Shown piece after piece: positions 2,473-32,013 of a stretch of DNA of 64,000 nucleotides. Every line of letters begins with the position of its first letter. Position 1 is the stretch's first letter. A program made the translations under genes and the position numbers. The notes below the pieces were generated by a model. That model had not been told where the DNA came from and ran no database searches. It saw only the letters and a list, made by a program, of their open reading frames with translations. The stretch comes from Bacteroidales bacterium (GTDB lineage: Bacteria; Bacteroidota; Bacteroidia; Bacteroidales; F082), in assembly GCA_023229135.1 (NCBI GenBank), contig JALNZT010000006.1, positions 1,996 through 65,995 of the forward strand, in the 5' to 3' direction.

Positions 2473-3687
2473 ATGCTGAAAGGTAAAAAAATTCTTATCG
2501 GAATTACTGGAAGCATTGCAGCTTATAAAATTCCGCTGCTGGTACGCTTGCTGGTGAAACAACAAGCTGAGGTGCAAATTGTTATGACGCCTTCAGCCCA
2601 TGATTTCGTTACGGCACTCACCTTATCAACGCTTAGCAAACGTCCCGTTTTATCCAAAGCTTTTGACCCCGAAACCGGCCAATGGGACAGCCATGTGGAG
2701 CTGGGATTGTGGGCCGATTTGATGCTTATTGCTCCAGCTTCTGCCAATACCTTGGCGAAAATGACACAGGGTTTGGCGGATAATTATTTGCTTACCGTTT
2801 ATTTGTCAGCACGTTGTCCTGTATTTTTTGCACCGGCCATGGATCTCGATATGTATAAACATCCGGCAACACAGCAAAATGTAAAATCCCTTGTGCAACG
2901 CGGTTACCAGCTTATTGCACCTTCTTCGGGAGAGTTGGCAAGCGGCTTGTGCGGCGAAGGCAGGATGGAAGAGCCGGAACAGATTTTTGAAAGAATCAGA
3001 TCGTATTTTGCTAAAGGACAGCGGTTTAAAGATAAAAAGGTGTTGGTTAGTGCCGGTCCTACTTACGAAGCCATCGATCCGGTGCGTTTTGTAGGCAATT
3101 ATAGCAGTGGCCGCATGGGCGTTGAGATTGCCAAAGCTTTTGCTGCCCAAGGTGCTTCCGTTACCTTGGTTTTAGGTCCGGTAAGTATCGTGCTCGATTT
3201 GTCAGGGGAAATTGATGTGATTCCCGTTACTACAGCACAAGAAATGTTTGATGGCTGCATGGCGTTTTTCGCACAGGCGGATATTGCTGTTATGACCGCT
3301 GCCGTTGCGGATTACAGGCCTGAAGAAGTGTCAGAAACAAAAATTAAAAAGCAGGCAGACGACCTCACTATAAAACTGGTTAAGAACAAAGATATTTTAG
3401 CTACAATGGGTAGTCAAAAGCGTGAGGATCAGTTTTTAGTTGGTTTTGCGCTGGAGACAGACAATGAAATTGAAAACGCGAAAAAGAAACTACATACCAA
3501 AAAGCTGGATTTGATCGTTCTTAACTCACTGTCGGATGCCGGAGCAGGTTTCGGTCATCATACCAATAAGGTTAGCTTTATTGATAAATCAGGTGAAACA
3601 AAGCCTTACAGCTTGAAATCAAAAACTGAAGTAGCTGAGGATTTGACGGATACTGTTTTTGCGAAAACTAAGAATGTAAATAATTGA
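2473..3687 (+). CDS. coaBC: bifunctional phosphopantothenoylcysteine decarboxylase / phosphopantothenate-cysteine ligase
   Basis: 404-aa ORF with the N-terminal flavoprotein motif KKILIGITGSIAAYK and a C-terminal ligase half (VSAGPTYEAIDPVRFVGNYSSGRMG). Confidence 0.92.
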   Translation: MLKGKKILIGITGSIAAYKIPLLVRLLVKQQAEVQIVMTPSAHDFVTALTLSTLSKRPVLSKAFDPETGQWDSHVELGLWADLMLIAPASANTLAKMTQGLADNYLLTVYLSARCPVFFAPAMDLDMYKHPATQQNVKSLVQRGYQLIAPSSGELASGLCGEGRMEEPEQIFERIRSYFAKGQRFKDKKVLVSAGPTYEAIDPVRFVGNYSSGRMGVEIAKAFAAQGASVTLVLGPVSIVLDLSGEIDVIPVTTAQEMFDGCMAFFAQADIAVMTAAVADYRPEEVSETKIKKQADDLTIKLVKNKDILATMGSQKREDQFLVGFALETDNEIENAKKKLHTKKLDLIVLNSLSDAGAGFGHHTNKVSFIDKSGETKPYSLKSKTEVAEDLTDTVFAKTKNVNN

Positions 3688-3716
3688 GATTAAGCGCCAC
3701 TAAGCTAAAACTATTT

Positions 3717-4622
3717 ATGTCGAAAAAAGTATTATTGTTTATTTTCAGTTTATTGCTGCTTTTGCCTGCAGCTAAATCTCAGGAATTTTTGGCAGACATC
3801 CGCGTAACCACGCCAACTATTGAAGGGACAGACAAACGTGTTTTCGAGGCTTTGCAATCGGCTTTATATGATTTTGTGAATAACCGGAAATGGACCAATA
3901 TCAATTTTAAAAATCAGGAACGCATTGAGTGTTCTATATTGATAACCATTAAGGAACGCGTTTCGTCTGATGAGTTTAAAGGCACAATAAATTTGGTGCT
4001 GAGGCGTCCGGCTTTTAAATCATCCTACAATAGTGTGTTGCTAAACTATATTGACGAGAATTTCCAGTTTCGCTATATTGAGTCGCAACCGCTTGATTTT
4101 ATTGAGAATACCTATAGCTCAAGCCTTACCTCAACGGTAGCTTTTTACCTTTATTATTTTTTAGGACTAGATTTTGATAGCTATTCGCTTTACGGTGGCG
4201 ATCCCTTTTACCGGGTAGCCGAAGCCATTGTTAACTCAGCACAAAACGCCCAGGAAAGAGGCTGGAAAGCCTTTGACGGAAACAGAAATCGCTATTGGCT
4301 GGTAGAAAATATGACCAATCCCGCTTATCGTCCTCTCCGTCAATTTTCTTATGAATATCACCGACTTGGTTTAGATATCATGTCAGAAAAACCTGACGAA
4401 GGCCGCGCTGCCATTGGCCAAAGTCTCACTTACTTGCAGCAAACCTGGAAAGATCGGCCAAACCTGCTGACTCTACAACTGATTTTTGATGCTAAACGTG
4501 ACGAAATCATCAATGTTTTCTCTCAGGGAAGCCCGCAGGAAAAAACCAAAGCGGTAAATATCATGCGTGAAGTTGACCCGTCTAATGCTTCTAAGTATGA
4601 GAAGATTTTGGCACCGAATTGA
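3717..4622 (+). CDS. DUF4835-like secreted protein; its 3' end is the insertion hotspot
   Basis: The track ORF starts at TTG 3684, overlapping the coaBC stop. ATG 3717 gives the signal peptide MSKKVLLFIFSLLLLLPAAKSQ. The family name is recalled from the conserved coaBC-DUF4835-recN neighbourhood and has not been verified by search. Confidence 0.65.
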   Translation: MSKKVLLFIFSLLLLLPAAKSQEFLADIRVTTPTIEGTDKRVFEALQSALYDFVNNRKWTNINFKNQERIECSILITIKERVSSDEFKGTINLVLRRPAFKSSYNSVLLNYIDENFQFRYIESQPLDFIENTYSSSLTSTVAFYLYYFLGLDFDSYSLYGGDPFYRVAEAIVNSAQNAQERGWKAFDGNRNRYWLVENMTNPAYRPLRQFSYEYHRLGLDIMSEKPDEGRAAIGQSLTYLQQTWKDRPNLLTLQLIFDAKRDEIINVFSQGSPQEKTKAVNIMREVDPSNASKYEKILAPN

Positions 4623-7357: not shown

Positions 7358-7448
7358 TTTTTTTAAGTTTAGTGGTTTGTAAATATGGTAAGTAACGAAG
7401 AACGCCATCTCAATAAAATATAACATCATTGAGACGGCCCACCTCGGC

Positions 7449-7999
7449 CGAACTTATTCTTCCCCAGCCAAAAGATGTATTTAGTTGTGCAATATGGCAC
7501 AAATTGTCTATCAAATAAAAGTGTGTAGTAAAGCTCATGACAACAAGCTACATCAAAGGATACTAACCGGGCTAAACCACCATGCCTTGCTTTTGCGGGG
7601 GGGGGTAAAGCCATATTGTTCAGGATACCAGAGCGAACTTATCAGCTGCCTACGCTTTAAAGCACACAACTTAAAGATTGCGGTTAGAAAAGACCTAAAA
7701 AAACGGATAGTTTTCATAAGCTGGTTTTGAGGCTTCAAGTATAAGTACAATAAACATAAAGCACAACTTTTTTTTTGCGATTTTGCAATAAAAAAAACAA
7801 ATATTTTTTATGTTACTGAAATTCAATTGAATAAAACTGTTTTTTAAGCTTGATAAATTCTAAAAGGTGGCTGAGAGAGCTTATATTAACTAAATGCGCT
7901 GGAAAAAATGGGAGCAAAACTCAAGCTCTATAACTGATTATCAATGCCAATAGAGACGGATTTAGGGAGGCACGGATTGCAAATCCGCGCCAGCGGGTG
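7449..7999 (-). repeat. promoter/leader module copy A (heads cassette A)
   Basis: It aligns by eye along its whole length with 17736-18270, 24793-25358 and 26807-27299. It contains a G9 run at 7597-7605. Confidence 0.9.
7736..7766 (-). promoter_or_regulatory. Bacteroidota-type promoter in module A (TTG-20 nt-TATACTTG)
   Basis: The minus strand reads agTTGtgctttatgtttattgtactTATACTTGaagcc. This is one mismatch from the TAnnTTTG -7 consensus, and copies D and E match it perfectly. Confidence 0.45.
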
Positions 8000-8065
8000 A
8001 ATATTATGCGTGAGGTTGATCCGGCTAATGCTTCTAAGTATGAGAAGATTTTGGTGCCGAGGTAA
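8000..8065 (+). pseudogene. displaced 3'-end fragment of the DUF4835 gene
   Basis: aatattatgcgtgaggttgatccggctaatgcttctaagtatgagaagattttggtgccgaggtaa is colinear with 4557-4622. It encodes NIMREVDPANASKYEKILVPR* versus NIMREVDPSNASKYEKILAPN* in the gene. Confidence 0.85.
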
Positions 8066-11715: not shown

Positions 11716-12996
11716 TTATTCAGTCTTATCATTATCTTGCCATGTTTTTTTAACAGGATCGTAATTACAAAGATTCATAATACCAAAGTAAAGCTCATAA
11801 CTAGATATTGGCTGACATAAATATCGGTATACACAATTTTTACAGGGTTCAACTTTTGCCCTTGTTAAATACCAGGAGCTATCTTCTATCGTATGAGCGT
11901 TGCGCAATATTTCAATCAGTTTGTTGCTTTTTATATTGCCAATATGAGGCATGTTCAAATTAGCATGAACATCACCATTGGGAAGAATAAATAACTTCCC
12001 AAAGCTTAAATGGTTTATAAACAATCTGGAGGCAATTTCACGATGAGTTAATGACTGATTCTCAACATCTGCCTTGTTACTTTTTATCACTTCAAATAAA
12101 GCATTTGACGTTGAGTTATCTATGAATGGGATCAATTCATAGGTAATGCCTTGTGTAATAAAAATTTGCTCCAAGTCTGAAATATCATTCACATCACGAA
12201 TAATTATCTTAAAAACTATTCTTGAGATGGAATCCTCATTCATCGAGAAAAAGTCAAATAATAACTTACGTTCGGTTTTGAAATCGACCCATAAAATAAA
12301 TTTTAAGTTCTCTGTATAAGTAAGTGTTTTATTATCTAATAATTCTATTACAGCGTCAGAGATATAAGCATTATAATGAACAAAACAATCCTTAAAAAAA
12401 TCGCACGTATCCTTTATTTTCTTTAGTGAAATCTCATTTCCATACAATTGAACTTTTCTAAGGCCCGGAAAAGCTTCACCCCTAAAAAAACGTAAAACCA
12501 AGTTACTACTTTCATACTGAGCCTCATTTAGGTTTATGATTGGAGCATTGATTTGTTTACTACCCGACGTATTAAATGCTGAATCAGTAATGTTTGTTGA
12601 GGAATCTCCGTAATATATAAACACCTCTTTTAGTGAATATCGGAGGTTCAAAGTTTGCCATGTTTTATCATTATTTATGTTATTAACATCGAAGTTCAGT
12701 TTTGGCGCAAAAGGCAGGATTAAAGGACGATAATGACTTTCAATTAAATCCCCGTGAAAATAATCTCTGCATAAAACTATGAATGCTGTGATTTCATCGT
12801 CAATCAACTCATTTTCATCCAAAAGGGTAATTCTATTAACATCATCTTTGAGTAATCTCGAAATGAATTCAACCCCTTTTATTCCTTTAAATAGAAAGGT
12901 AGAAGTTATACTATTAATCGTATTATGTAGCAAAATTTGATTATCAATGAGATCTGAATGAACATAAGGTTCAAGATAAAAAAAGGAATTAAGCAT
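11716..12996 (-). CDS. pseudo-rSAM protein (SPASM-like Cys cluster, no CxxxCxxC), partner of the radical SAM maturase
   Basis: The track ORF extends to 13086. ATG 12996 (MLNSFFYLEPYV) overlaps the rSAM stop as ATGCTTAA. The C-terminus has CKNCVYRYLC..C, and there is no radical-SAM Cys triad. This matches my memory of the GG-Bacteroidales pseudo-rSAM family. Confidence 0.7.
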   Translation of the reverse strand: MLNSFFYLEPYVHSDLIDNQILLHNTINSITSTFLFKGIKGVEFISRLLKDDVNRITLLDENELIDDEITAFIVLCRDYFHGDLIESHYRPLILPFAPKLNFDVNNINNDKTWQTLNLRYSLKEVFIYYGDSSTNITDSAFNTSGSKQINAPIINLNEAQYESSNLVLRFFRGEAFPGLRKVQLYGNEISLKKIKDTCDFFKDCFVHYNAYISDAVIELLDNKTLTYTENLKFILWVDFKTERKLLFDFFSMNEDSISRIVFKIIIRDVNDISDLEQIFITQGITYELIPFIDNSTSNALFEVIKSNKADVENQSLTHREIASRLFINHLSFGKLFILPNGDVHANLNMPHIGNIKSNKLIEILRNAHTIEDSSWYLTRAKVEPCKNCVYRYLCQPISSYELYFGIMNLCNYDPVKKTWQDNDKTE

Positions 12997-14476
12997 AGCG
13001 CGTTTTTCTCCATATTTCTGAGTAAACATCAGTAAATGCCTCAAAGAATGAGTAGTAATCCCTAAGAAGATCAATGTGATCTTCATTTTTTAGATGGGAA
13101 CATTTTACTGTTTTATCTTCCTTTATTATATTTAGAAACAAACATTCTTTGCATAGGTTGACTCGATAACAGTTATTGCATTTCCCTTTTAATTTTTCAA
13201 AGTGATTATTATACATCATAACAATCTTTTCATAATCTAAAAATACTTTTCCATTTTGAACATTACCTAATGAATACTCATGCGCAATGGCTTCGCAGGG
13301 CAGTATTTTTCCCTTTGCTGTGACAAACATTCTTTTGCTAAACGGATTGCAGGTGCCAGTAGGAAGAAAATTGCCCTTAGTATTGTAATTAAATAAGTCA
13401 TCAATTGTAGAAAAATGGTTATTCGTATAGTTTCTAAGAAACATGTTATAGCTCAAAGATTCACCTGAGGAAAGAAAACACTTTTTATGCTCTGATTTAT
13501 TAAGATCGTAATTATGACCATCGTAATTGAATTTTTTTCCAACTAATAGCGGATTTACCTCGGTGCCGGCAATTGATTTTTTGAATTCTCTCCAAATAAA
13601 TTCCTGAATAGAAATGAAATCATTTCTGTCGTGTAGTACCGCATTAAAAAGTACATTTTGTTCAAAAAATGAAGGGTAGTTCCTCTTAACCAAGTGGATG
13701 TTCTTGAATACAACCTTAAATGATTCTTTGTTATTAGGAAAAAGTCTGTAGCTATTCGCAAATGAGTCTCCGTCAAGACTAATAGTAAGCGCAAAGTTGT
13801 TTTTTGCAATGAATTCAATGTGTTGGTTTAACAAAACACCATTAGTTGTCATGTTAAACCTAAAGTTGAGGGGAGTGTTTTTGCTCAATTCTTCAATATA
13901 GGAAACTAATTCCTCAATGAAAGGAAAGTTCAATAACGGTTCGCCACCAAAAAATCCGATGAATATTTCTTTTTCAAGATTACTGTTAACTTTACTAAGC
14001 CACTTTGGTATTAAGTATTCTATTACTGCTTTAGCATTAGCAATACTTAAATCAAGATTATTCCGTGAATCATGAGTGTGATAATTATCTCCATAAAAGC
14101 AGTACTTACACTGGAGATTGCATCTTTCAGTAATTTCAAACACTAGAGCGCGTAAGTTTGATAACTCATAGTTAATATCGGAAGGCTTTAGTCGCCCTCC
14201 AATAATTTGTTCGTTGCTAATAGTATTAAAAAATCCGTTTTCTTTTAGGAACTCAAACTTACGTTTATAGTATATATCTGCTTTCTCCTTTGTCTTAAAA
14301 AGTAAGCTATCAGATTCGTCTTGATTTTCCTCAGTAATGGACCTATTGTTTGTTGCGTTGAAATCTTTTAGTTTTATATACCTAACTACCATTGGATTCA
14401 TATAAATAATATGCTTCTTATAAAAGCTAAATAAGTATTGATTATGTTTGGTAGTGAATAAATTAAAATCAGGCAT
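12989..14476 (-). CDS. radical SAM/SPASM domain peptide maturase
   Basis: 495-aa ORF with the radical SAM triad ITERCNLQCKYCFYG. SPASM motifs are GTCNPFSKRMFVTAKGKILPCEA and CNNCYRVNLCKEC. Confidence 0.9.
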   Translation of the reverse strand: MPDFNLFTTKHNQYLFSFYKKHIIYMNPMVVRYIKLKDFNATNNRSITEENQDESDSLLFKTKEKADIYYKRKFEFLKENGFFNTISNEQIIGGRLKPSDINYELSNLRALVFEITERCNLQCKYCFYGDNYHTHDSRNNLDLSIANAKAVIEYLIPKWLSKVNSNLEKEIFIGFFGGEPLLNFPFIEELVSYIEELSKNTPLNFRFNMTTNGVLLNQHIEFIAKNNFALTISLDGDSFANSYRLFPNNKESFKVVFKNIHLVKRNYPSFFEQNVLFNAVLHDRNDFISIQEFIWREFKKSIAGTEVNPLLVGKKFNYDGHNYDLNKSEHKKCFLSSGESLSYNMFLRNYTNNHFSTIDDLFNYNTKGNFLPTGTCNPFSKRMFVTAKGKILPCEAIAHEYSLGNVQNGKVFLDYEKIVMMYNNHFEKLKGKCNNCYRVNLCKECLFLNIIKEDKTVKCSHLKNEDHIDLLRDYYSFFEAFTDVYSEIWRKTRYA

Positions 14477-17451: not shown

Positions 17452-17649
17452 TTAATACGCAAAATTATTCCTAGAGCCAGTTATTCCTGCACTTTGCCGG
17501 TTTGAATATGTTTGCTGATATGTAGTGTCGCCAGAACCACAATCACAACTGCAACTGCAAACTGGTGTCGAACCTCCACCTCCCTGTTCTCCACCTTTAA
17601 TATGACCTAATGAATTTTGGGTCATTTTGATTAATTTTAGATTTTTCAT
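17452..17649 (-). CDS. RiPP precursor peptide with a double-glycine leader and CxCxCxC core
   Basis: MKNLKLIKMTQNSLGHIKGG | EQGGGGSTPVCSCSCDCGSGDTTYQQTYSNRQSAGITGSRNNFAY. Confidence 0.85.
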   Translation of the reverse strand: MKNLKLIKMTQNSLGHIKGGEQGGGGSTPVCSCSCDCGSGDTTYQQTYSNRQSAGITGSRNNFAY

Positions 17650-17735
17650 ACTTTGAATTGTTAGACTGTAAATAATTGTGAGTAGTTAAAAGTGAATTGT
17701 GAAGCCGTCCTTAAAAGAAAGACGGCACAATTCAA

Positions 17736-18270
17736 TCGAACTTATTCTTCCCCAACCAGAAAATATATTTTGTCGTGCAACAAGGCACAAATTGTTTATC
17801 AAATAAAAGTGCGTGGGATAATTCATGACAACAGTCTGCATTAAAGCTATCTAGCCGGGCTATACCACCATACCTTACTTTTGCGGGGGGGGGGTAGGAT
17901 AGCAGAGCAAGCTAATCAGCTGCGTACGCTTTAAAGCACACGGCTTGAGGATTGCGTTTAGAAAAGACCTAAAAAAACGGATAGTTTTCATAAGCTGGTT
18001 TTGAGGCTTCAAGTATAAGTACAATAAACATAAAGCGCAACTTTTTTTTGCGATTTTGCAATAAAAAAAACAAATATTTTTTATGTTACTGAAATTCAAT
18101 TGAATAAAACTGTTTTTTAAGCTTGATAAATTCTAAAAGGTGGCTGAGAGAGCTTATATTAACTAAATGCGCTGGAAAAAATGGGAGCAAAACTTATGCT
18201 TTACAACTGAACATCAATGGCAAAAGAGACGGATTTAGGGGGGCACGGATTGCAAATCCGCGCCAGCGGG
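17736..18270 (-). repeat. promoter/leader module copy B (heads the complete rSAM operon)
   Basis: It aligns with copies A, D and E. It has a G10 run at 17885-17894, and its upstream end abuts a truncated gene at 18270/18271. Confidence 0.9.
18010..18040 (-). promoter_or_regulatory. Bacteroidota-type promoter in module B (TTG-20 nt-TATACTTG)
   Basis: Same sequence context as module A, about 355 nt upstream of the precursor ATG at 17649. Confidence 0.45.
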
Positions 18271-18841
18271 GAGAAATCTTATTTCCATACAATTGAACTT
18301 TTCTAAGACCTGGTAAAGCTTCATCTCTAAAAAAACGCAAAACCAAGTCACTATTTTTATACTGAGCCTCATTTAGGTTTGTGATTGGAGCATTGATTTG
18401 TTTATTACCCGACGTATTAAATGCTGAATCAGTTATGTTTGTTAAGGAATCTCCATGATATATAAACAACTCATGAAATGTATTTCTAAGGTTCATTGTT
18501 CGCCAGGTTCTTTCATCATTGAGATGTTCAAAATCAAAATTGAGTTTAGGGGCAAAAGGCATGATCACCGGCCGATAATCGCTTTCGATTATATCACCAT
18601 AATAATATTCCCTACATATTTCTATGAATTCCCTGATCTCACTATTAACCAATTCAAATTCACTTAATAGAGCAATTCTGTTAACATCATCATCGAGTAA
18701 TCTTTTTGCAAAACCAACGGATTCTTTATTTCTAAATAGGTAAAGAGAAGTTTTGTGACTTAAGGTATTATATAATAGAATATGGTTATCAATCAAGTCA
18801 GCATGAACAAATGGTTCGATATAGAAGTAGTTGTTAGGCAT
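18271..18841 (-). pseudogene. 3'-truncated pseudo-rSAM gene (only the first ~190 codons remain)
   Basis: From MPNNYFYIEPFVHADL.. to ..LRKVQLYGNKIS it is colinear with 11716-12996. It then reads into leader module B (PRWRGFAIRAP..). Its start overlaps the rSAM stop as ATGCCTAA. Confidence 0.85.
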
Positions 18842-20318
18842 AACGTGTTTTTCTCCAAATTTCTGAATACAATTCTGGCAAAGCCTCAAAAAAAGAATAA
18901 TAGTCGTTTAAAAGTCCCTTGTGACTTTCGTTATTAAGGAAAGAACATTTCAATGATTGCTCATCATTTAGCATGTTTAGAAACAAACATTCTTTACATA
19001 AATTGACTCGATAACAACTATTACATCTACCTTTCAGTTTCTCAAAATAGCCATTGTACATTTTGACTATCACTTTTGGTTCCAAATTTACAGTTCCACC
19101 TTGAACGTTTCCAAGGGCATATTGATGAGAAATAGCTTCGCATGGAAGTATTTTGCCTTTTGCTGTTACAAACATTCTTTTGCTAAAAGGGTTGCATGTT
19201 CCGGTTGGAAGGGAGTTCGAAATGGCATTGAAATTATACAAATCGTCTATCGCTGCAAAATGATTATTTGAATAGTTACGCAAAAACATATTATAGCTTA
19301 ATGACTCGCCCGAAGACAGAAAACATCTTTTGTGCCCAGATTTCCTAAAATCATAACTATGTCCATCATAATTGAAATTGTTTCCTGTCAACAAAGGGTT
19401 AACTTCAGATCCTTGAATAGATTTGTTAAACTCTCTCCATGCAAATTGCTGTGTTGATATATAATCATTCCTATCATGCAGAACTGCATTAAATAGCACA
19501 TTACGTTCAAAATAATCAGGATGCTTTTCCTTTACCAAACGTAAGTTCTTAAAAACTATGTCAAAAGATTCTTTTCCATTCGGAAAAAGCCTGTAACTAT
19601 TTGCAAAAGCCTCACCATCCAGGCTAATAGTGAGAGCGAAGTTGTTGTTTGAAATGAAATCGATGTATTTGTTTAGCAAAACACCGTTTGTTGTCATATT
19701 AAATCTAAACGTTAAACCGGTATTTTTGCTTACTTGGTTAATATACAAAACAAACGCTTCAATAAAACTAAAGTTCAACAAAGGCTCACCGCCAAAAAAA
19801 CCTATAAAAATTTCCTTTTCAGGATTTTTATTTAACTTACTAAGCCATTTTGGAATAAGATAATCAACTATCGCTCTGGCATCTAAAATATTCAAATCAA
19901 GATTCATCCGCGAATCATGTGTGTTATAACTATCTCCATAGAAACAATATTTACATTGTAGATTACATCTTTCTGTGATTTCAAATACAATTGCCCGTAG
20001 GTTTGACAGTTCGTACTCAATATCAGATTCTTTCAGGCGACCACCAATTATTTGTTCATTATCAATGTTTTCAAAAAATCCGTGTTCCCGAAGAAATTCG
20101 TATTTCTTTTTGTAATATACCAACTTATCATTTTTGTTTTGATTTACTAAGTTGGCTGTTTCTTTTTTATCTACCAATTGATTTTCATTGTTTTGCATTT
20201 TGAGTTTTTGATCGTGTGTCAAACTACTCATTAAGGGATGAAAATTAATCGAATACTTTTTATTAAAGCTAAATAGATAGTTATTGTATTTAGTTGAAAA
20301 GGTAGTGTAATCAGGCAT
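18834..20318 (-). CDS. radical SAM/SPASM domain peptide maturase (second copy)
   Basis: 494-aa ORF with ITERCNLQCKYCFYG, GTCNPFSKRMFVTAKGKILPCEA and CNSCYRVNLCKEC. It is colinear with 12989-14476. Confidence 0.9.
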   Translation of the reverse strand: MPDYTTFSTKYNNYLFSFNKKYSINFHPLMSSLTHDQKLKMQNNENQLVDKKETANLVNQNKNDKLVYYKKKYEFLREHGFFENIDNEQIIGGRLKESDIEYELSNLRAIVFEITERCNLQCKYCFYGDSYNTHDSRMNLDLNILDARAIVDYLIPKWLSKLNKNPEKEIFIGFFGGEPLLNFSFIEAFVLYINQVSKNTGLTFRFNMTTNGVLLNKYIDFISNNNFALTISLDGEAFANSYRLFPNGKESFDIVFKNLRLVKEKHPDYFERNVLFNAVLHDRNDYISTQQFAWREFNKSIQGSEVNPLLTGNNFNYDGHSYDFRKSGHKRCFLSSGESLSYNMFLRNYSNNHFAAIDDLYNFNAISNSLPTGTCNPFSKRMFVTAKGKILPCEAISHQYALGNVQGGTVNLEPKVIVKMYNGYFEKLKGRCNSCYRVNLCKECLFLNMLNDEQSLKCSFLNNESHKGLLNDYYSFFEALPELYSEIWRKTRYA

Positions 20319-21926: not shown

Positions 21927-22007
21927 CGTTTGAAAAGTTTAATTGGAAATAATAATAACTAGAAAATGAGGGTACGCCGTCAATTAATTAATGACGGCAA
22001 TCATCGA

Positions 22008-24683: not shown

Positions 24684-24792
24684 AAAATAATATATTAATT
24701 TAGTTGATTAAAACCTAAAATTCTCCAACGGTATAAATCTATCCGTGAATAAAGCCGTCCATCCAATGGTTTTGGTAGACGGCCCACCTCGG

Positions 24793-25358
24793 TCGAACTT
24801 ATTCTTCCCCAACCAATCCCGAAAGCTTTCGGGAATATTTCGTCGTGCAATAAGGCACAAATTGTCTATCAAATAAAAGTATGTAGTAAAGCTCATGACA
24901 ACAAGCTCCATTAAAGGCGGCTAACCGGGCTAAACCACCATAGTCTTGCTTTTGCGGGGGGGGGGGTAAAGCCATGTTGTTCATGATAACACAACAAGCT
25001 TATCAAACGTGTACACTTTATAGTACACAACTTAAAGATTGCGGTTAGAAAAGACCTAAAAAAACGGATAGTTTTCATAAGCTGGTTTTGAGGCTTCAAA
25101 TATAAGTACAATAAACATAAAGCGCAACTTTTTTTTACGATTTTGCAATAAAAAAACAAATATTTTTTATATTACTGAAAATCAACTGAATAAAACTGTT
25201 TTTTAAGCTTGATAAATTGCCAAATGCGGCTGAGAGAGCTTAGATTAACTAAATATGCTGGAAAAAATGGGAGCAAAACTTATGCTTTACAACTGATTAT
25301 CAATGGCAAAAGAGAAGGATTTAGGGGGGCACGGATTGCAAATCCGCGCCAGCGGGTG
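24793..25358 (-). repeat. promoter/leader module copy D (heads the ATP-grasp cassette)
   Basis: It aligns with copies A, B and E and has a G11 run at 24956-24966. It carries an extra small hairpin insertion cccgaaagctttcggg at 24818-24833. Confidence 0.9.
25097..25127 (-). promoter_or_regulatory. Bacteroidota-type promoter in module D (TTG-20 nt-TATATTTG, perfect TAnnTTTG)
   Basis: The minus strand reads gTTGcgctttatgtttattgtactTATATTTGaagcc. Confidence 0.5.
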
Positions 25359-25516
25359 TTTGTAGTAAACGGCGCTTTCCCTAATATTATAGATTTATTG
25401 TTTTGACCAATTGTTTGGCAAGTCCAATTATCACCAGCAACTTGTGCAAATATAAAATTATTAACAACCAGAAAAAAGATTAGTAAAATAGGTTTGAAAT
25501 TAAATTTTGTCATCAT
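25280..25516 (-). pseudogene. truncated ORF running into leader module D
   Basis: MMTKFNFKPILLIFFLVVNNFIFAQVAGDNWTCQTIGQNNKSIILGKAPFTTN is followed, from 25358 downward, by the same module-encoded tail (RWRGFAIRAPLNPSLLPL) seen on the truncated pseudo-rSAM gene. Confidence 0.6.
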
Positions 25517-26655: not shown

Positions 26656-26806
26656 GCTATTTATTGTTAAATTATTAAATTCTATAACGGGTTCATTATG
26701 ACTGATTTATGCGTAAAAAACGATTTTGACAATGAGAACCCAAAACCTTATAATATAAAAACATGTTTCGCCGCTACTTTATTCTATATAGTTGCGGCTA
26801 ACTCGA

Positions 26807-27299
26807 TCGAACTTATTCTTCCCCAACCAGAAAATATATTTTGTCGTGCAATAGGACACAAATTGTCTATTGTATAAAAGTGTACAGTAAAGCTCATGAC
26901 AACAATCAGCATTAAAGGCCGCTAAGTGGGCTAAACCACCACACCTTACTTTTTCGGGGGGGGGGGGTAGGATAGCAGAGCGAGCTAATCAGCTGCGTAT
27001 GCTTTAAAGCGCACAGCTTGAAGATTGCGGTTAGAAAAGACCTAAAAAAACGGATGGTTTTCATAAGTTGGTTTTGAGGCTTCAAATATAAGTACAATAA
27101 ACATAAAGCGCAACATTTTTTTTTACGATTTTGCAATAAAAAACAAATATTTTTTATGTTACTGAAAATCAACTGAATAAAACTGTTGTTTAAGCTTGAT
27201 AAATTCTAAAAGGTGGCTGAGAGAGCTTAGATTAACTAAATATGCTGGAAAAAATGGGAGCAAAACTCCAGGTTTACAACTAATTCTCTATTTCAAAAA
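26807..27299 (-). repeat. promoter/leader module copy E (heads the lipoprotein cassette)
   Basis: It aligns with copies A, B and D and has a G11 run at 26956-26966. Its upstream end joins a DUF4835-gene fragment at 27300 instead of the hairpin end of the other copies. Confidence 0.9.
27083..27113 (-). promoter_or_regulatory. Bacteroidota-type promoter in module E (TTG-20 nt-TATATTTG)
   Basis: Same context as module D. Confidence 0.5.
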
Positions 27300-27440
27300 A
27301 GACGAAATCATTTATATTTTCTCACAAGGAAGCCCGCAGGAAAAAACCAAAGTGGATAATGAGGCTCGCCAGTCAGGGCGCAACAAATTGGATTCGCCTC
27401 AGAGTCGCACCCTTACTCTTCACCCTGACTCTTAAAAAGC
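27300..27440. repeat. direct repeat 1 flanking the FtsX permease gene (begins with a copy of DUF4835 nt 4500-4559)
   Basis: gacgaaatcatttatattttctcacaaggaagcccgcaggaaaaaaccaaagtggataat is colinear with 4500-4559. It then continues gaggctcgccagtcagggcgcaac..., which is shared with 30162-30285. Confidence 0.85.
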
Positions 27441-27485: not shown

Positions 27486-29876
27486 TTATTTATTTCCTTT
27501 CAAATGTTTTATTGGACTGGTATTTAGTGTTTTGCTCAGCACGAAATAGCAAATCAATACTATAAAAGCTAGCATGCTGGTCGAAATAGCAAAGAGTACA
27601 AGATAGGAATAGGGAAGTGCTTGGTCAAACATTTCGTTAAACCTTGAAGTCAGCTCACCGGAAAATGGTATGGAAAAAACTATTACAATCGATATCATCA
27701 GCACGAAGTATTTTGAAAAATCTTTTATAATTATAGTATCAGGAGCGCCATAAACCCGTTTTACGGAAATATTGTATTGGTTTTCGTTCAAGAAGTATAA
27801 GGTTATACCTGTCAAACCAATTAACGCAATAGCTGAGATTATAACTGTAAAGAACAATATGAAGTTACGAAGTCCGATATCCTTTTCATACAAGCTATCA
27901 AGTGCTTCATTGAATGTGTTGCTACTAAACAACCTATTTGGCAAAACCTTTGAAATAATATCGTGTATGGCTTGTGTTTTTTCGGGAGAAACCTCATGAT
28001 GGAACCGAATCGCCATTTGCCGCGTTGTCATTTCGTTTGGATAAAAAATCATTGGCGATATCTGTTTATGCAGGCTGTGAAAACGGAAATTTTCAACAAC
28101 ACCCAGCACAGGCAAACCAGCAATTCGCTCCTCAAGTGGATTAGCAAATCCAAAAACATTGGCTGCTTTCCTGTTGATAAAAAGACCATGCGTTAAGGCC
28201 ATATTATCTGACAAATACAGCGAATCACCATCAACAAAAAGGCCATAAGTTTCAAAAAAGTCGTTGTTCACACGGTATATTTCGCATACCACTGATTTTG
28301 TTCTGTCATTATCAGGTTTTAAATCCTTTTGTGCGGAAGCATTCGAAGGTGGAAGTAGGATTCCACCTGTAACAGCTTTAACCATACCATAGTCTAATAG
28401 ATTCGATTTCAATTTGTTGTAGTCCTTTCTGCTGATATTTGAATCAAAGTATATATTGAGAATATTAGCTGTTTTATGGGTTGAATGCACGGATAAACCG
28501 TAATTCAATTGACGGTAAATATGGATTGAAAAAGTGAGCAGAACAAGGGAAACGAAAAATTGCACCCCTACAATAACATAAATACCAAACTTTCTGCCGA
28601 CTTGCTGCTTACTTTTTCTATGAATGGCTTCAATAGGTTTTAGGGCAGAAACATAAACACTTAAATAAACGGTAGAAATTGCAATTATTACAAACAACAA
28701 TATGCCAAGCCAAATAAAATACTCCCAAAGTTTATTCGTATGTACGATCACTTGTGGAAGCAGATATCCATCCAGAAAATTTTGATATAAAGCGTAATAC
28801 AATACAATAAATGGCGTTGTGAAAACTGCCAGAATCAAGGCTTCAGCAAAAAGCTGTCTAGCCAAACTTATATGGCTGGCACCAAAAACCTTACGAATGC
28901 CTATTTCGAGATGACGTTTTGCTGTAAGATTGGTTTGCAGCAATATGTAATTGAACGAAGTAAGTAACAAAAGCACCAAAATTGAAACGCGGTAATATTT
29001 TAAACTAAGGATATCCCCTTTTTCAATAAAATCATTTTTCACATTAGCCGAATAGTGAAATATATCTTCAAAACGCTGAAGCAGAAGGCTGTTTTCCGGT
29101 CGCGTATTTTTATAGGCATCTTTTGTTAAGCGGCTAAATGAGGTAACAAATTCTATTTCGCTAATATTTCGTTCTCTTTTGAGTAAAAAACACACATTAT
29201 CATCCGATAAAGAGTTTAGAAGATTATCCCGGTCGTAGCCATATTCATATACTAAGATGTCTTGGTGAAAGCTTAAATCACAAACAAAACCCGGTCGGTA
29301 GGTATTGTTCCACACGATATCCTCAAAAACACCTGAAACAATAAAGTCATGTCGCTTGTCCTTTAGCTTCATTGTAAACACTTTTCCAATAATATCTGAA
29401 GTGCCAAAATACTTATGCGCATTAGACTTCGAGAGTAATATATTTCCTGGTATTAGTTTTAAAGTTTCAGAACCAAATAAATTTTTAAAATTTAGTAATT
29501 TCATAAAATTGCTGTCAGCTGCATATACTTCCTCTTCAACCATCCCGACATCATCAATCATGCCATACATTTGGCCAATATTATTGGGTAGTTTTACGAA
29601 TCGTGAGTAGGCTGAAAAGTGCGGTGATTGCTTCAAGGCCATTTCAAAAAGGGGGTAAGGTACGGCAGGCTGTTTGAATCCGCTTTCATACCTGCTTATA
29701 ATCCGGTAGAGCAATTCGCTGTTTTCGATGTTTTTATTGTAGCTCATTTCGTTGATAAGCTTGAGCGATAGGGTGAAAATACCGAACAGGCCAAGGCTTA
29801 AGCCGAGAAGTGCAAGCAATGCGATAACTTTATTCCTGAAATAAAAGTTAAAGAAAGTTTTAATTAGGCCATTCAT
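27486..29876 (-). CDS. FtsX/MacB-like ABC transporter permease (two FtsX-type TM bundles)
   Basis: 796-aa ORF with an N-terminal TM, a large extracytoplasmic domain and a TM cluster, the whole arrangement repeated twice. This is the typical ~800-aa Bacteroidota ABC transporter permease. No ATPase gene is adjacent. Confidence 0.75.
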   Translation of the reverse strand: MNGLIKTFFNFYFRNKVIALLALLGLSLGLFGIFTLSLKLINEMSYNKNIENSELLYRIISRYESGFKQPAVPYPLFEMALKQSPHFSAYSRFVKLPNNIGQMYGMIDDVGMVEEEVYAADSNFMKLLNFKNLFGSETLKLIPGNILLSKSNAHKYFGTSDIIGKVFTMKLKDKRHDFIVSGVFEDIVWNNTYRPGFVCDLSFHQDILVYEYGYDRDNLLNSLSDDNVCFLLKRERNISEIEFVTSFSRLTKDAYKNTRPENSLLLQRFEDIFHYSANVKNDFIEKGDILSLKYYRVSILVLLLLTSFNYILLQTNLTAKRHLEIGIRKVFGASHISLARQLFAEALILAVFTTPFIVLYYALYQNFLDGYLLPQVIVHTNKLWEYFIWLGILLFVIIAISTVYLSVYVSALKPIEAIHRKSKQQVGRKFGIYVIVGVQFFVSLVLLTFSIHIYRQLNYGLSVHSTHKTANILNIYFDSNISRKDYNKLKSNLLDYGMVKAVTGGILLPPSNASAQKDLKPDNDRTKSVVCEIYRVNNDFFETYGLFVDGDSLYLSDNMALTHGLFINRKAANVFGFANPLEERIAGLPVLGVVENFRFHSLHKQISPMIFYPNEMTTRQMAIRFHHEVSPEKTQAIHDIISKVLPNRLFSSNTFNEALDSLYEKDIGLRNFILFFTVIISAIALIGLTGITLYFLNENQYNISVKRVYGAPDTIIIKDFSKYFVLMISIVIVFSIPFSGELTSRFNEMFDQALPYSYLVLFAISTSMLAFIVLICYFVLSKTLNTSPIKHLKGNK

Positions 29877-30161
29877 TTTGAAAAGGTATTTAGTATTCTA
29901 TTATACAAATTGAACTTTTCCGATACCATTATGGGGCAAGATGAATTTTTAACTCGAAGCTGGTACTGTAATATAATGATTGGCTGTTTCATAGCATGTT
30001 AATTAAAGTACGATATTACAAAATTATCTTTTCAAAAGCAAGCAACGAATTAGGTTCGTATTTTAAAAAATAGAGGAATATTATGTAAAAGGCTCAATAA
30101 ATTGCTATTGCTCCTTGTTTAAGATGTGTTTAATTGACTTTCAAGGGTAGGCGACGAAATC

Positions 30162-30285
30162 ATTTATATTTTCTCACAAACAAGCCCGTAGAAAAAAACC
30201 AAAGTGGTGAATGAGGCTCGCCAGTCAGGCCGCAACTAATCCGGAAACGATAAAATTCGCACCCTGACTTCAAAGCAATAAATAT
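30162..30285. repeat. direct repeat 2 flanking the FtsX permease gene
   Basis: gacgaaatcatttatattttctcacaaacaagcccgtagaaaaaaaccaaagtggtgaatgaggctcgccagtcaggccgcaac... is colinear with 27300-27440 apart from a ~24-nt internal deletion. Confidence 0.85.
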
Positions 30286-30354: not shown

Positions 30355-32013
30355 ATGCTACAAAAAATTTCAATTTCCAATTATGCTTTAATCGAGGCAC
30401 TTAACATCAGCTTCGGGAATGGATTTACGGTAATCACCGGGGAAACCGGTGCCGGGAAGTCTATTTTGTTGGGTGCGCTGGGCTTGGTTTTAGGCAAAAG
30501 AGCCGATGTGAGTGTATTATTCAACAAGGATGAAAAGTGTATTGTTGAACTCAGTTTTCAACTTGAAAACGACAGCCTGAAACCACTTTTCGAAAGTTGG
30601 GATTTGGAATACGACAACGAATGCCTGATGCGGCGTGAGATAAGTCCTAAAGGAAAATCCAGGGCGTTTATCAATGATACGCCGGTAAATCTTCAGCAGA
30701 TGAAAACTCTTGGAAGTCAGCTTATTGATGTGCATTCCCAGCACGATTCTTTATTGCTGGTTGATCAAAACTATCAGTTGAAAATGCTGGATACTTTGAT
30801 AGAAGATCAATCGACAATTAAACAGTATAAATCGCATTATCAGGAATATATAAAACTTAAACACGAAATAGAGCAGCTTAAAAGCGAACTAAGCAACAAC
30901 CTGGCTGAAATGGATTTTTTGCGTTTTCAACTCGACGAACTCGAAGCGGCTAATTTGGTTGAGTCTGAGTTTGACGAATTGCAGCAAAGGCTGCTGATGC
31001 TCGATCATGCAGAAGAAATTAAAACTTCGCTGGTCGAAATAAATGGGATGATGCAGCAGGACGAACAGCCTGTTTTGCCGCAGCTTATGCAAATTAAACG
31101 ACAGCTCGAAAAATTACGAAAATATTTACCGCAAGCCACAAGCCTCGACGAACGCCTCAATAGCGTTTTGATCGAACTGAAAGATATTTCCTTTGAAACA
31201 GATCAGTTGGAAGCCGATGTGCAATTTGATCCCAACGAATTGGAACAGGCTTCAATACGCATGGATTTGATAAATCATTTGATGCACAAACATCATATCA
31301 AGGAATTTGATGAGCTACTGAAATTGAAAGTTGAGCTGGCCGAAAGATTGTCAAGTATTGATAGTTCTGAAGATTTGCTGACGCAAAAAACAAAGCTTTT
31401 CGATAGCAAATTAAGACTGCTCCAAACGCTTGCTGCCGATATTCACAAGCAAAGGCTTGCCGCTGCAAAACCTTTTGAGCAATCGGTTTCTGCCTTGTTG
31501 AAGCAGCTGGGAATGCCTTATGGGAGTTTCAAGATTGATTGCGCCCTCACCTCAAGCGTTTCGGAATCGGGTAGGAGTCGGGTACGTTTTTTATTTTCGG
31601 CCAACAAAGGCATTGCCGAAGCTGAAATTGATAAGGTAGCTTCCGGTGGCGAGCTTTCCAGGTTGATGCTCGCCATCAAATGGATGATAGCCGGCGCAGG
31701 ATTTGTTTCTACGGTAATTTTTGATGAAATTGATACCGGTGTTTCGGGTGAGGTGGCTGCTAAGGTAGCCCGGTTACTGAGGCAAATGGCTGAAAAAGTG
31801 CAGGTGGTCAGCATAACACATCTCCCACAGATTGCCAGCAAGGCTGATGCGCATTTCTTTGTTTTTAAGGAAGACGCTAAAGAGCGGAGTTTTACAAATA
31901 TGCGTCTTTTAAACCAGAATGAACGTTACGAGGAGGTAGCTAAAATGATTAGCAATGATGCTGTTTCTGATGTGGCTTTGCAGGCCGCCAAAAGTCTTTT
32001 TGAAGTTAATTGA
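30355..32013 (+). CDS. recN: DNA repair protein RecN
   Basis: 552-aa ORF with the N-terminal Walker A VITGETGAGKSILLGAL, a long coiled coil and the C-terminal SGGELSRLMLAIK..VIFDEIDTGVSG. Confidence 0.95.
   Translation: MLQKISISNYALIEALNISFGNGFTVITGETGAGKSILLGALGLVLGKRADVSVLFNKDEKCIVELSFQLENDSLKPLFESWDLEYDNECLMRREISPKGKSRAFINDTPVNLQQMKTLGSQLIDVHSQHDSLLLVDQNYQLKMLDTLIEDQSTIKQYKSHYQEYIKLKHEIEQLKSELSNNLAEMDFLRFQLDELEAANLVESEFDELQQRLLMLDHAEEIKTSLVEINGMMQQDEQPVLPQLMQIKRQLEKLRKYLPQATSLDERLNSVLIELKDISFETDQLEADVQFDPNELEQASIRMDLINHLMHKHHIKEFDELLKLKVELAERLSSIDSSEDLLTQKTKLFDSKLRLLQTLAADIHKQRLAAAKPFEQSVSALLKQLGMPYGSFKIDCALTSSVSESGRSRVRFLFSANKGIAEAEIDKVASGGELSRLMLAIKWMIAGAGFVSTVIFDEIDTGVSGEVAAKVARLLRQMAEKVQVVSITHLPQIASKADAHFFVFKEDAKERSFTNMRLLNQNERYEEVAKMISNDAVSDVALQAAKSLFEVN

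Follow-up and report, generated by a model that had tools for sequence, protein, structure and literature searches.

Why should a sequence shared by several cassettes of one genome end at the same point in each of them, with entirely different DNA beyond? The question is raised by a window of 64,000 nucleotides (positions 1,996 to 65,995 of contig JALNZT010000006.1 of a Bacteroidales bacterium), in which the leader modules A, B and D finish with the same 43 nt. A sequence-only reading of the window had described this end as a sharp, hairpin-bearing boundary and had taken it for a recombination site, integron-attC-like or an integrase arm or core site, rather than the outcome of random deletion. 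The common end itself is real: three near-identical copies of the 43-mer (7955-7997, 18228-18270 and 25314-25356) each terminate the common module, with unrelated sequence to the right, and a 19-nt core, CACGGATTGCAAATCCGCG, has three exact matches in the window (7971, 18244 and 25330, all on the plus strand) where 0.01 would be expected by chance. What is this sequence? Does it occur elsewhere, and next to what? Did it take part in making the junctions?

The gene order in the window is coaBC, an intact DUF4835 gene (3684-4622, plus strand; Pfam PF16119, E = 1.7e-100), about 25.7 kb of RiPP cassettes (4640-30280) and recN (30355-32013). The cassettes are missing from 9/9 other species of the genus, in which coaBC, DUF4835 and recN are contiguous with a gap of 50-180 nt, and thus the RiPP island is an insertion specific to this genome. 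Its open reading frames encode RiPP, transport or unknown proteins. Repeat finding and alignment yielded four copies of a module of about 0.56 kb, namely A (7432-7997), B (17720-18270), D (24790-25356) and E (26791-27343), which are 76-96% identical overall, and a fifth copy, C, which is divergent and partial and stops short of the position of the 43-mer. The module consists of a putative promoter and a long leader upstream of minus-strand RiPP operons, the 43-mer forming its promoter-distal edge. Excluding the terminal sequences considered below, the minus-strand module extends over 7432-7968 in A and 24790-25327 in D, as delimited by repeat families and alignment, and over 17720-18227 in B, where it serves a minus-strand RiPP operon and was delimited by repeat families D1-D3, alignment, tblastn and translations. 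At the opposite ends of the modules, in the direction of transcription (7403-7439, 17694-17733 and 21976-21998), there is a hairpin whose stem GCCGTC…GACGGC is kept and whose loop differs; in A the mismatched pair of the plus strand is a G·U on the transcribed strand, which suggests an RNA-level structure ahead of the first precursor gene.

The edge is as sharp as had been described. In alignments, homology among A, B and D extends to …CCAGCGGG and ends within 0-2 nt of it in every case: A and B split after 7997 and 18270, and A and D have two extra bases in common (TG), to 7999 and 25358, in agreement with the module ends previously placed at about 7999, 18270 and 25358. To the right of A lies a DUF4835 3' fragment, as had been recognized; 7996-8060 matches 4553-4617, and the part directly after the repeat end occupies 7998-8060 on the plus strand. 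To the right of B lies a truncated pseudo-rSAM gene (18271-18889, minus strand; TIGR04150 match), again confirming the earlier assignment. Its breakpoint was placed with the aid of an intact paralogue (11716-13086, minus strand): homology starts at 18271, equivalent to 12426 of the paralogue, so that the gene is severed at residue ~206 (residue 220 in the paralogue, which has 456), the 236 codons of its 3' half are gone and its frame continues into the repeat. This junction, between 18270 and 18271, is blunt (microhomology of at most 1 nt) and cuts the gene at the terminal G-run of the repeat. The right flank of D is occupied by an open frame of 84 codons, or 78 aa counted from its ATG, whose N-terminus resembles a signal peptide and which enters the repeat after ~53 codons (25357-25516, minus strand); the signal-peptide character had been correctly noted, and the truncation attributed to this frame is plausible from its course into the repeat, with no homologue of it among 272 genomes. 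Module E has no repeat at the corresponding position and, just as had been claimed, runs on into DUF4835 homology (GACG/AAATCAT...).

The 43-mer had been treated as one unit and turned out to be composite. Its first 4 nt, GACG, come from a decayed copy of the 3' end of DUF4835; then come 10 nt, GATTTAGGGG, which the alignments assign to no source and which, on the same evidence, are separate from what follows; the rest is a 29-nt repeat, GGCACGGATTGCAAATCCGCGCCAGCGGG. These leading 14 nt (18228-18241 in B, plus strand) are not found before the repeat elsewhere, the flanks of 42 and 110 other copies being different, and only the last 29 nt of the 43-mer are an element in their own right. Exact copies of the 29-mer, supported by alignment, are located on the plus strand at 7969-7997 (A), 18242-18270 (B) and 25328-25356 (D). 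In the fold of the 29-mer, a 10-bp stem with a single A·C mismatch closes a 3-nt loop (GGCACGGATT-GCA-AATCCGCGCC, 23 nt), and the G-rich tail AGCGGG follows; the inverted repeat had been given as 9 bp with one mismatch, of which the mismatch holds and the length does not. On the minus strand the A·C becomes a G·T and the fold is better (-9.6 kcal/mol, z = -3.5).

Beyond the island, the 29-mer is dispersed with different flanks, as the search of this genome and its relatives proposed by the sequence-only reading has revealed. At a looser match this genome (G000) has about 15 copies, spread over nine contigs and including some outside the island, and the repeat is present in 7/10 genomes of the genus, its own genome counted. 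In the family it is patchy, occurring in 20/272 genomes and 5/17 genera with 1-11 copies each (2-mismatch pattern), and in Bacteroidota as a whole it was found in at least 119 stretches. The matches listed are mostly from Bacteroidales MAGs; the others come from Prolixibacteraceae, Draconibacterium, Carboxylicivirga, Tangfeifania, Paludibacter, Tannerella, Rikenellaceae, Salinimicrobium and one Chloroflexota MAG. A 26-nt core is identical across several orders of Bacteroidota. The stem is maintained by compensation: at pair 4/16, for which the search pattern admitted all four combinations equally, the 116 family-wide hits include 74 G-C, 33 C-G, one G-G and no C-C, and further compensated variants are T-A, A-T and a double variant, CACACATT/AATGTGCG, the invariance of the other positions being partly imposed by the pattern. 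By eye, the variable trinucleotide that follows CCAGC did not covary with the bases on the 5' side of the hairpin, as it would with an IS608-style guide. The dispersed copies are singlets and inverted doublets, the doublets being 59-221 nt apart in many genomes.

The company that the repeat keeps reveals its identity. Many of its copies form inverted pairs with their G-rich tails outward, and two such pairs, 675-770 nt apart in one relative (G005:C17 and G005:C30), enclose intact genes for proteins of 170-176 aa. Both proteins match Pfam Y1_Tnp and have the NHVH (HUH) and YIHYNP motifs. The G005:C17 protein (176 aa), on which alone of the two the NCBIfam search was run, scores 97.6 bits against NF047646 REP_Tyr_transpos (REP-associated tyrosine transposase, RAYT; cut-off 80), and its closest solved structures by sequence are those of ISDra2 TnpA. 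RAYT homologues also lie within 8 kb of the repeat in 12/80 loci of other taxa, and at L091 and further loci among these the RAYT gene is surrounded by inverted copies. One species has two intact copies of the RAYT with its repeats, and the inverted pairs 59-221 nt apart are internally deleted shells of the unit. One such derivative, 256 bp long, has an internal deletion in the RAYT and keeps the coding sequence for the RAYT C-terminus; its copies in species G003 and G005 agree at 255/256 positions, and their flanks are unrelated immediately beyond the terminal C/G runs. From the flanking of RAYT genes, the dispersal and the 256-bp derivative it follows that the core of the 43-mer is a REP: the 29-mer is the REP of an IS-like RAYT (HUH Y1 transposase) element with a unit of about 0.7 kb, and the element is mobile. 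The repeat of copy B, for example, is the very sequence that flanks RAYT genes in relatives.

Within the window all three copies are solo REPs, in one orientation and at the promoter-distal edge of the module. No inverted partner was found in the window at up to 9 mismatches in 29, and the only matches at 10 mismatches are the same three copies on the opposite strand; a giant REPIN, with the module between inverted REPs, was therefore rejected. Neither module-REP nor DUF4835-REP adjacency was found elsewhere in the genus or in about 150 REP loci, and an exact 40-mer search of metagenome contigs for either adjacency gave no match. Of the cognate RAYT, only a pseudogene remains in this genome (C39:24529-24693); it has a W-to-stop change as well as an internal deletion and lies in a degenerate inverted-REP/RAYT arrangement, and thus the REPs of the window are probably inert now. 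One further REP site of this genome, on C70, is orthologously occupied in G008. Its left flank (C70:28860-29045) is a different high-copy repeat of about 100-185 nt, often tandem; this repeat makes up most of 93 genome matches and lies also on C1, C100, C79, C42, C43, C7, C84 and C46. Another observation concerns a unit of about 225 nt, comprising about 190 nt, one REP and GGGG, which is 83% identical between G009:C30 (L010) and G005:C28 (L030) in unrelated contexts; it is a second block ending in a single REP, with no inverted REP within about 200 nt on the other side.

The nearest known systems are the REP/RAYT systems (REPtrons and REPINs) of E. coli, Pseudomonas fluorescens, Stenotrophomonas maltophilia and Marinomonas; the REP of S. 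maltophilia has 23 nt, with an 8-bp stem and a 3-nt loop. Like these, the present repeat is short, rich in G+C and imperfectly palindromic, and it has a single-stranded tail that is conserved and a stem that covaries; its inverted copies surround an HUH/Y1 gene of about 170 aa, and inverted doublets and solo copies are dispersed. GT[AG]G stands at the foot of the hairpin in some RAYT-proximal copies only (GTAG/GCAC, GTGG/GCAC) and is not conserved overall, the window copies having GGAG or GGGG. Unlike the classical REPs, which number in the hundreds, there are 1-11 copies per genome, as in the IS-like RAYT groups; moreover, the whole RAYT plus REP unit and its 256-bp derivative look mobile and horizontally spread, and the conservation of the 26-nt core across orders is a further difference. 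The NHVH and YIHYNP set fits no single RAYT subclass exactly, the nearest being the Bacteroidetes subclass 2.6, whose genes have atypical flanking hairpins lacking GT[AG]G with copies elsewhere in the genome (PMC6006769). RAYTs cut single-stranded DNA beside REP hairpins through a 5'-phosphotyrosine link, strand transfer being possible (PMC8266576, PMC3333891). In addition, gyrase binds and cuts REPs, and REPs have been linked to recombination and IS insertions (PMC3184786).

The IS200/IS605 elements (IS608, ISDra2) share with the present unit a Y1 HUH transposase and subterminal imperfect hairpins about 8-10 nt from the element end, and no target-site duplication was seen; membership was rejected because here the ends are inverted rather than direct, the ~0.7-kb unit has no tnpB and solo hairpins are dispersed. 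Although the hairpin resembles a tRNA-Cys anticodon arm with GCA, neither the window nor 10 loci with the repeat gave a tRNA with ARAGORN. A known RNA family was also rejected, with no Rfam match at the gathering score in the window and none at E <= 1 in 17600-18300. What is new here is a Bacteroidota family of REP/RAYT elements that is IS-like, has few copies per genome and shows unusual conservation of a 26-nt core, REP/RAYT itself being known. The element is thus part of a family already described, whose ends are defined otherwise. Nevertheless, the suspicion of recombinogenic DNA is upheld, since REP-type repeats are substrates of a single-strand DNA recombinase: the boundary coincides with the terminus of a mobile hairpin repeat and is not a random deletion end, even if the attC or integrase identity is lost.

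How did such an end come to lie at the edge of the module? The remnants of DUF4835 provide clues. Immediately before the 43-mer, ~40-50 nt of the module (from ~7910-7919 in A; ~18183-18227 in B) represent the 3' end of DUF4835 in decayed form; this copy was traced by tblastn with DUF4835 residues 260-311 and by in-frame translations, and it begins at the equivalent of ~4465. In E the remnant is uninterrupted to ~4561 (module and remnant together, 26791-27388 on the minus strand, corresponding to ~4465-4561). In A, 39 nt (the 10 nt plus the 29-mer) stand in place of 51 nt of DUF4835, the reading frame is kept and homology resumes at 4553. B and D carry the REP, the 10-nt linker and the remnant as A does, and their homology to A ends inside the terminal G-run. 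The REP of A thus sits in frame inside a DUF4835 3' pseudo-copy (7955-8062, ending …DGFREARIANPRQRVNIMREVDPANASKYEKILVPR and a stop); ARIANPRQR, GLQIRASG and DCKSAPAG are the translations that the REP would leave in spurious open reading frame calls. The idea that the REP had replaced a REP-like stretch of DUF4835 was discarded, as the likeness by eye is not significant (local score 5, below the genome background mean of 5.9). Elsewhere in the island, 88-nt direct repeats, 91% identical, at 27301-27388 and 30153-30240 lie around the gene for a 796-aa MacB/FtsX-type permease (27486-29876, minus strand), each consisting of a DUF4835 3' remnant (equivalent to ~4500-4561) and ~27 further nt.

An outline of the proposed history is as follows: initially, the module would have lain directly beside a displaced 3' copy of DUF4835, the pre-REP state that E appears to keep. 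Then one REP would have been gained within the DUF4835 remnant, and A, with DUF4835 homology on both sides, would keep this state. Later, at least two rearrangements would have fused the outer end of the REP, within its terminal G-run, to unrelated DNA, in mid-gene in the pseudo-rSAM (B) and inside the frame for a small secreted protein (D). The cognate RAYT, when still active, could have made the break by nicking and transferring a strand, or the extruded hairpin could have been processed, and the module copies would afterwards have been homogenized by gene conversion. This order of events, a role of the REP end in breakage and the RAYT as the cause of the breaks are all inferred from the present arrangement.

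The central reading, that the REP end was a preferred point of breakage and joining, has in our estimation a probability of about 0.5-0.6. It is favored by the ends of B and D, both of which lie within 0-2 nt of a single position where a mobile repeat also terminates; were breakpoints to fall at random in a module of ~560 nt, such a coincidence would have a chance of roughly 1-in-100 to 1-in-200 per event. On the other hand, the three copies represent only ~2 independent joining events. Furthermore, the canonical mobile units of the genus end 2-4 G beyond the junctions of the window (CCAGCGGG plus GG to GGGG), and thus these junctions fall within the G-run, a position that may not be a defined site of cleavage. 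CT and CA are the dinucleotides at which known RAYTs cut; the only conserved CT here (GCT/GG, minus strand) is 6 nt inside the junction.

It may instead be asked whether the REP is merely the last sequence that the modules have in common, the block having been copied by illegitimate or homology-facilitated recombination and the copies kept alike by conversion, with no causal role of the repeat. That the modules are patchworks of conversion tracts is clear from their pairwise identities: 100% between A and B over alignment columns 331-530 (200 columns), 97-100% between A and D in columns 131-170 and 291-330, and 88-95% between B and E in columns 51-130 and 211-290, the last two being the closest pairs in their blocks. 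Identical blocks between different pairs indicate that gene conversion has homogenized the copies, and this mosaicism keeps such a passive origin alive, as do the small number of independent junctions, the dead cognate RAYT and the fit of the island to sequential displacement at a hotspot behind DUF4835. However, conversion needs homology on both sides and cannot by itself make the first junction, and a passive edge would have to fall by chance, in both B and D, within 0-2 nt of a mobile-repeat terminus that was defined independently. We consider this origin rather unlikely. The 200-nt identical stretch of A and B could also have let a short-read assembler swap the flanks of these two copies, and the assembly is a draft of 101 contigs, so that collapse or mis-joining at the modules has to be considered. 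Yet the REP is just 29 nt long, the copies differ at many other positions, and a mis-join in the identical block would swap flanks but could not create ends of homology at the REP; an artefact is therefore highly improbable.

The same weighing applies to what the hairpin might do. It could be a part of the module retained by selection, a terminator or insulator, or an mRNA 3'-end stabilizer, shielding the promoter from read-through of upstream minus-strand genes. Its place, after the preceding minus-strand genes and ahead of the putative promoter region, fits this, as does its stable minus-strand fold, and REPs elsewhere stabilize or attenuate transcripts (PMC3184786). An intrinsic terminator was rejected because there is no U-tract (the minus-strand tail is CCCCCCTAAATCC) and a terminator scan made no call; moreover, module E works without this hairpin and the upstream 'genes' of B and D are truncated remnants. 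Selection for function would account for retention and not for the sharp boundary, and as an explanation of the locus it is very doubtful; it is compatible with a preferred break at the REP end, and weak insulation or transcript stabilization by the REP hairpin may occur. As for a site of site-specific recombination for insertion of RiPP cassettes, whether integron attC-like or a tyrosine or serine integrase att core, the sharp recurrent boundary with an imperfect palindrome looks cassette-like, and the displaced copies of a gene 3' end resemble att-site duplications. Nevertheless, the search for a linked recombinase that had been suggested gave no tyrosine recombinase (PF00589) on the 138-kb contig C32 and no recombinase domain among the island open reading frames, nor is an IntI linked. 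There are only three copies, one per module and none in cassette E; instead of showing the R''-L''/L'-R' architecture of attC, the repeat is a simple 23-nt hairpin with a tail, which is not derived from DUF4835, occurs also outside any array and elsewhere flanks RAYT genes and forms the 256-bp doublets; and the right flanks are truncated genes rather than cassette ends. An attC or att identity is accordingly scarcely credible.

A stronger version of the break at the REP end would make RAYT/REP a cassette shuffler, in which a nick at a solo REP and one-ended strand transfer fuse the promoter/leader module to new DNA. This would account for five unrelated peptide operons being driven from one and the same module, and if the transposase did make the joins, REPs would be seen to drive promoter-cassette fusions. 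Such fusions have been suspected for REP-associated rearrangements, and we know of no demonstration for RAYTs. We regard the shuffler as distinctly unlikely. For the more modest reading, the preferred joining at the REP end, the tie of REP ends to the joints of RiPP cassettes is suggestive, and the junction sequences show that at least part of the patchwork was joined at a transposon-type hairpin end without a dedicated integrase. The island resembles sequential-displacement arrays, the 'orphan' arrays of Rhs and T6SS effector-immunity loci, in its displaced partial 3' copies of a conserved upstream gene, here DUF4835, with newer cassettes nearer the intact gene; unlike in those arrays, three displaced joints coincide with a transposon-type hairpin end, which has not been described for such arrays. 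In any case the boundary now has a concrete, testable identity as the REP of a Bacteroidota RAYT family whose transposase unit still looks mobile. To our knowledge, nearly all that is understood of REP/RAYT biology comes from Proteobacteria, and Bacteroidales now allow intact genes, 256-bp deletion derivatives and solo ends to be compared.

Two further observations lie outside the window. In G003 the 256-bp REP doublet (G003:C49:29716-29971; locus L005, 1499-1754) is situated 27 nt past the conserved end of an Rhs core (…YYPFGITL), at the conserved/variable joint of an Rhs orphan array with at least five copies of the 296-nt core end. If the cassette shuffler were true, this doublet would be a second instance of the same activity; no general association of REPs with Rhs arrays emerged, only the G003 and G001 loci showing one. 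Lastly, the genome of the window has a second full-length RAYT paralogue (C24:70856-71398), 44% identical to the cognate type, with different flanking repeats. Arrays of another repeat of ~100 nt lie on both sides of it (C24:70457-71800) and contain the hairpin TTCCGCAGAGCATTTGCTCTGTGGAA; they are probably a second REP family in the same genome.
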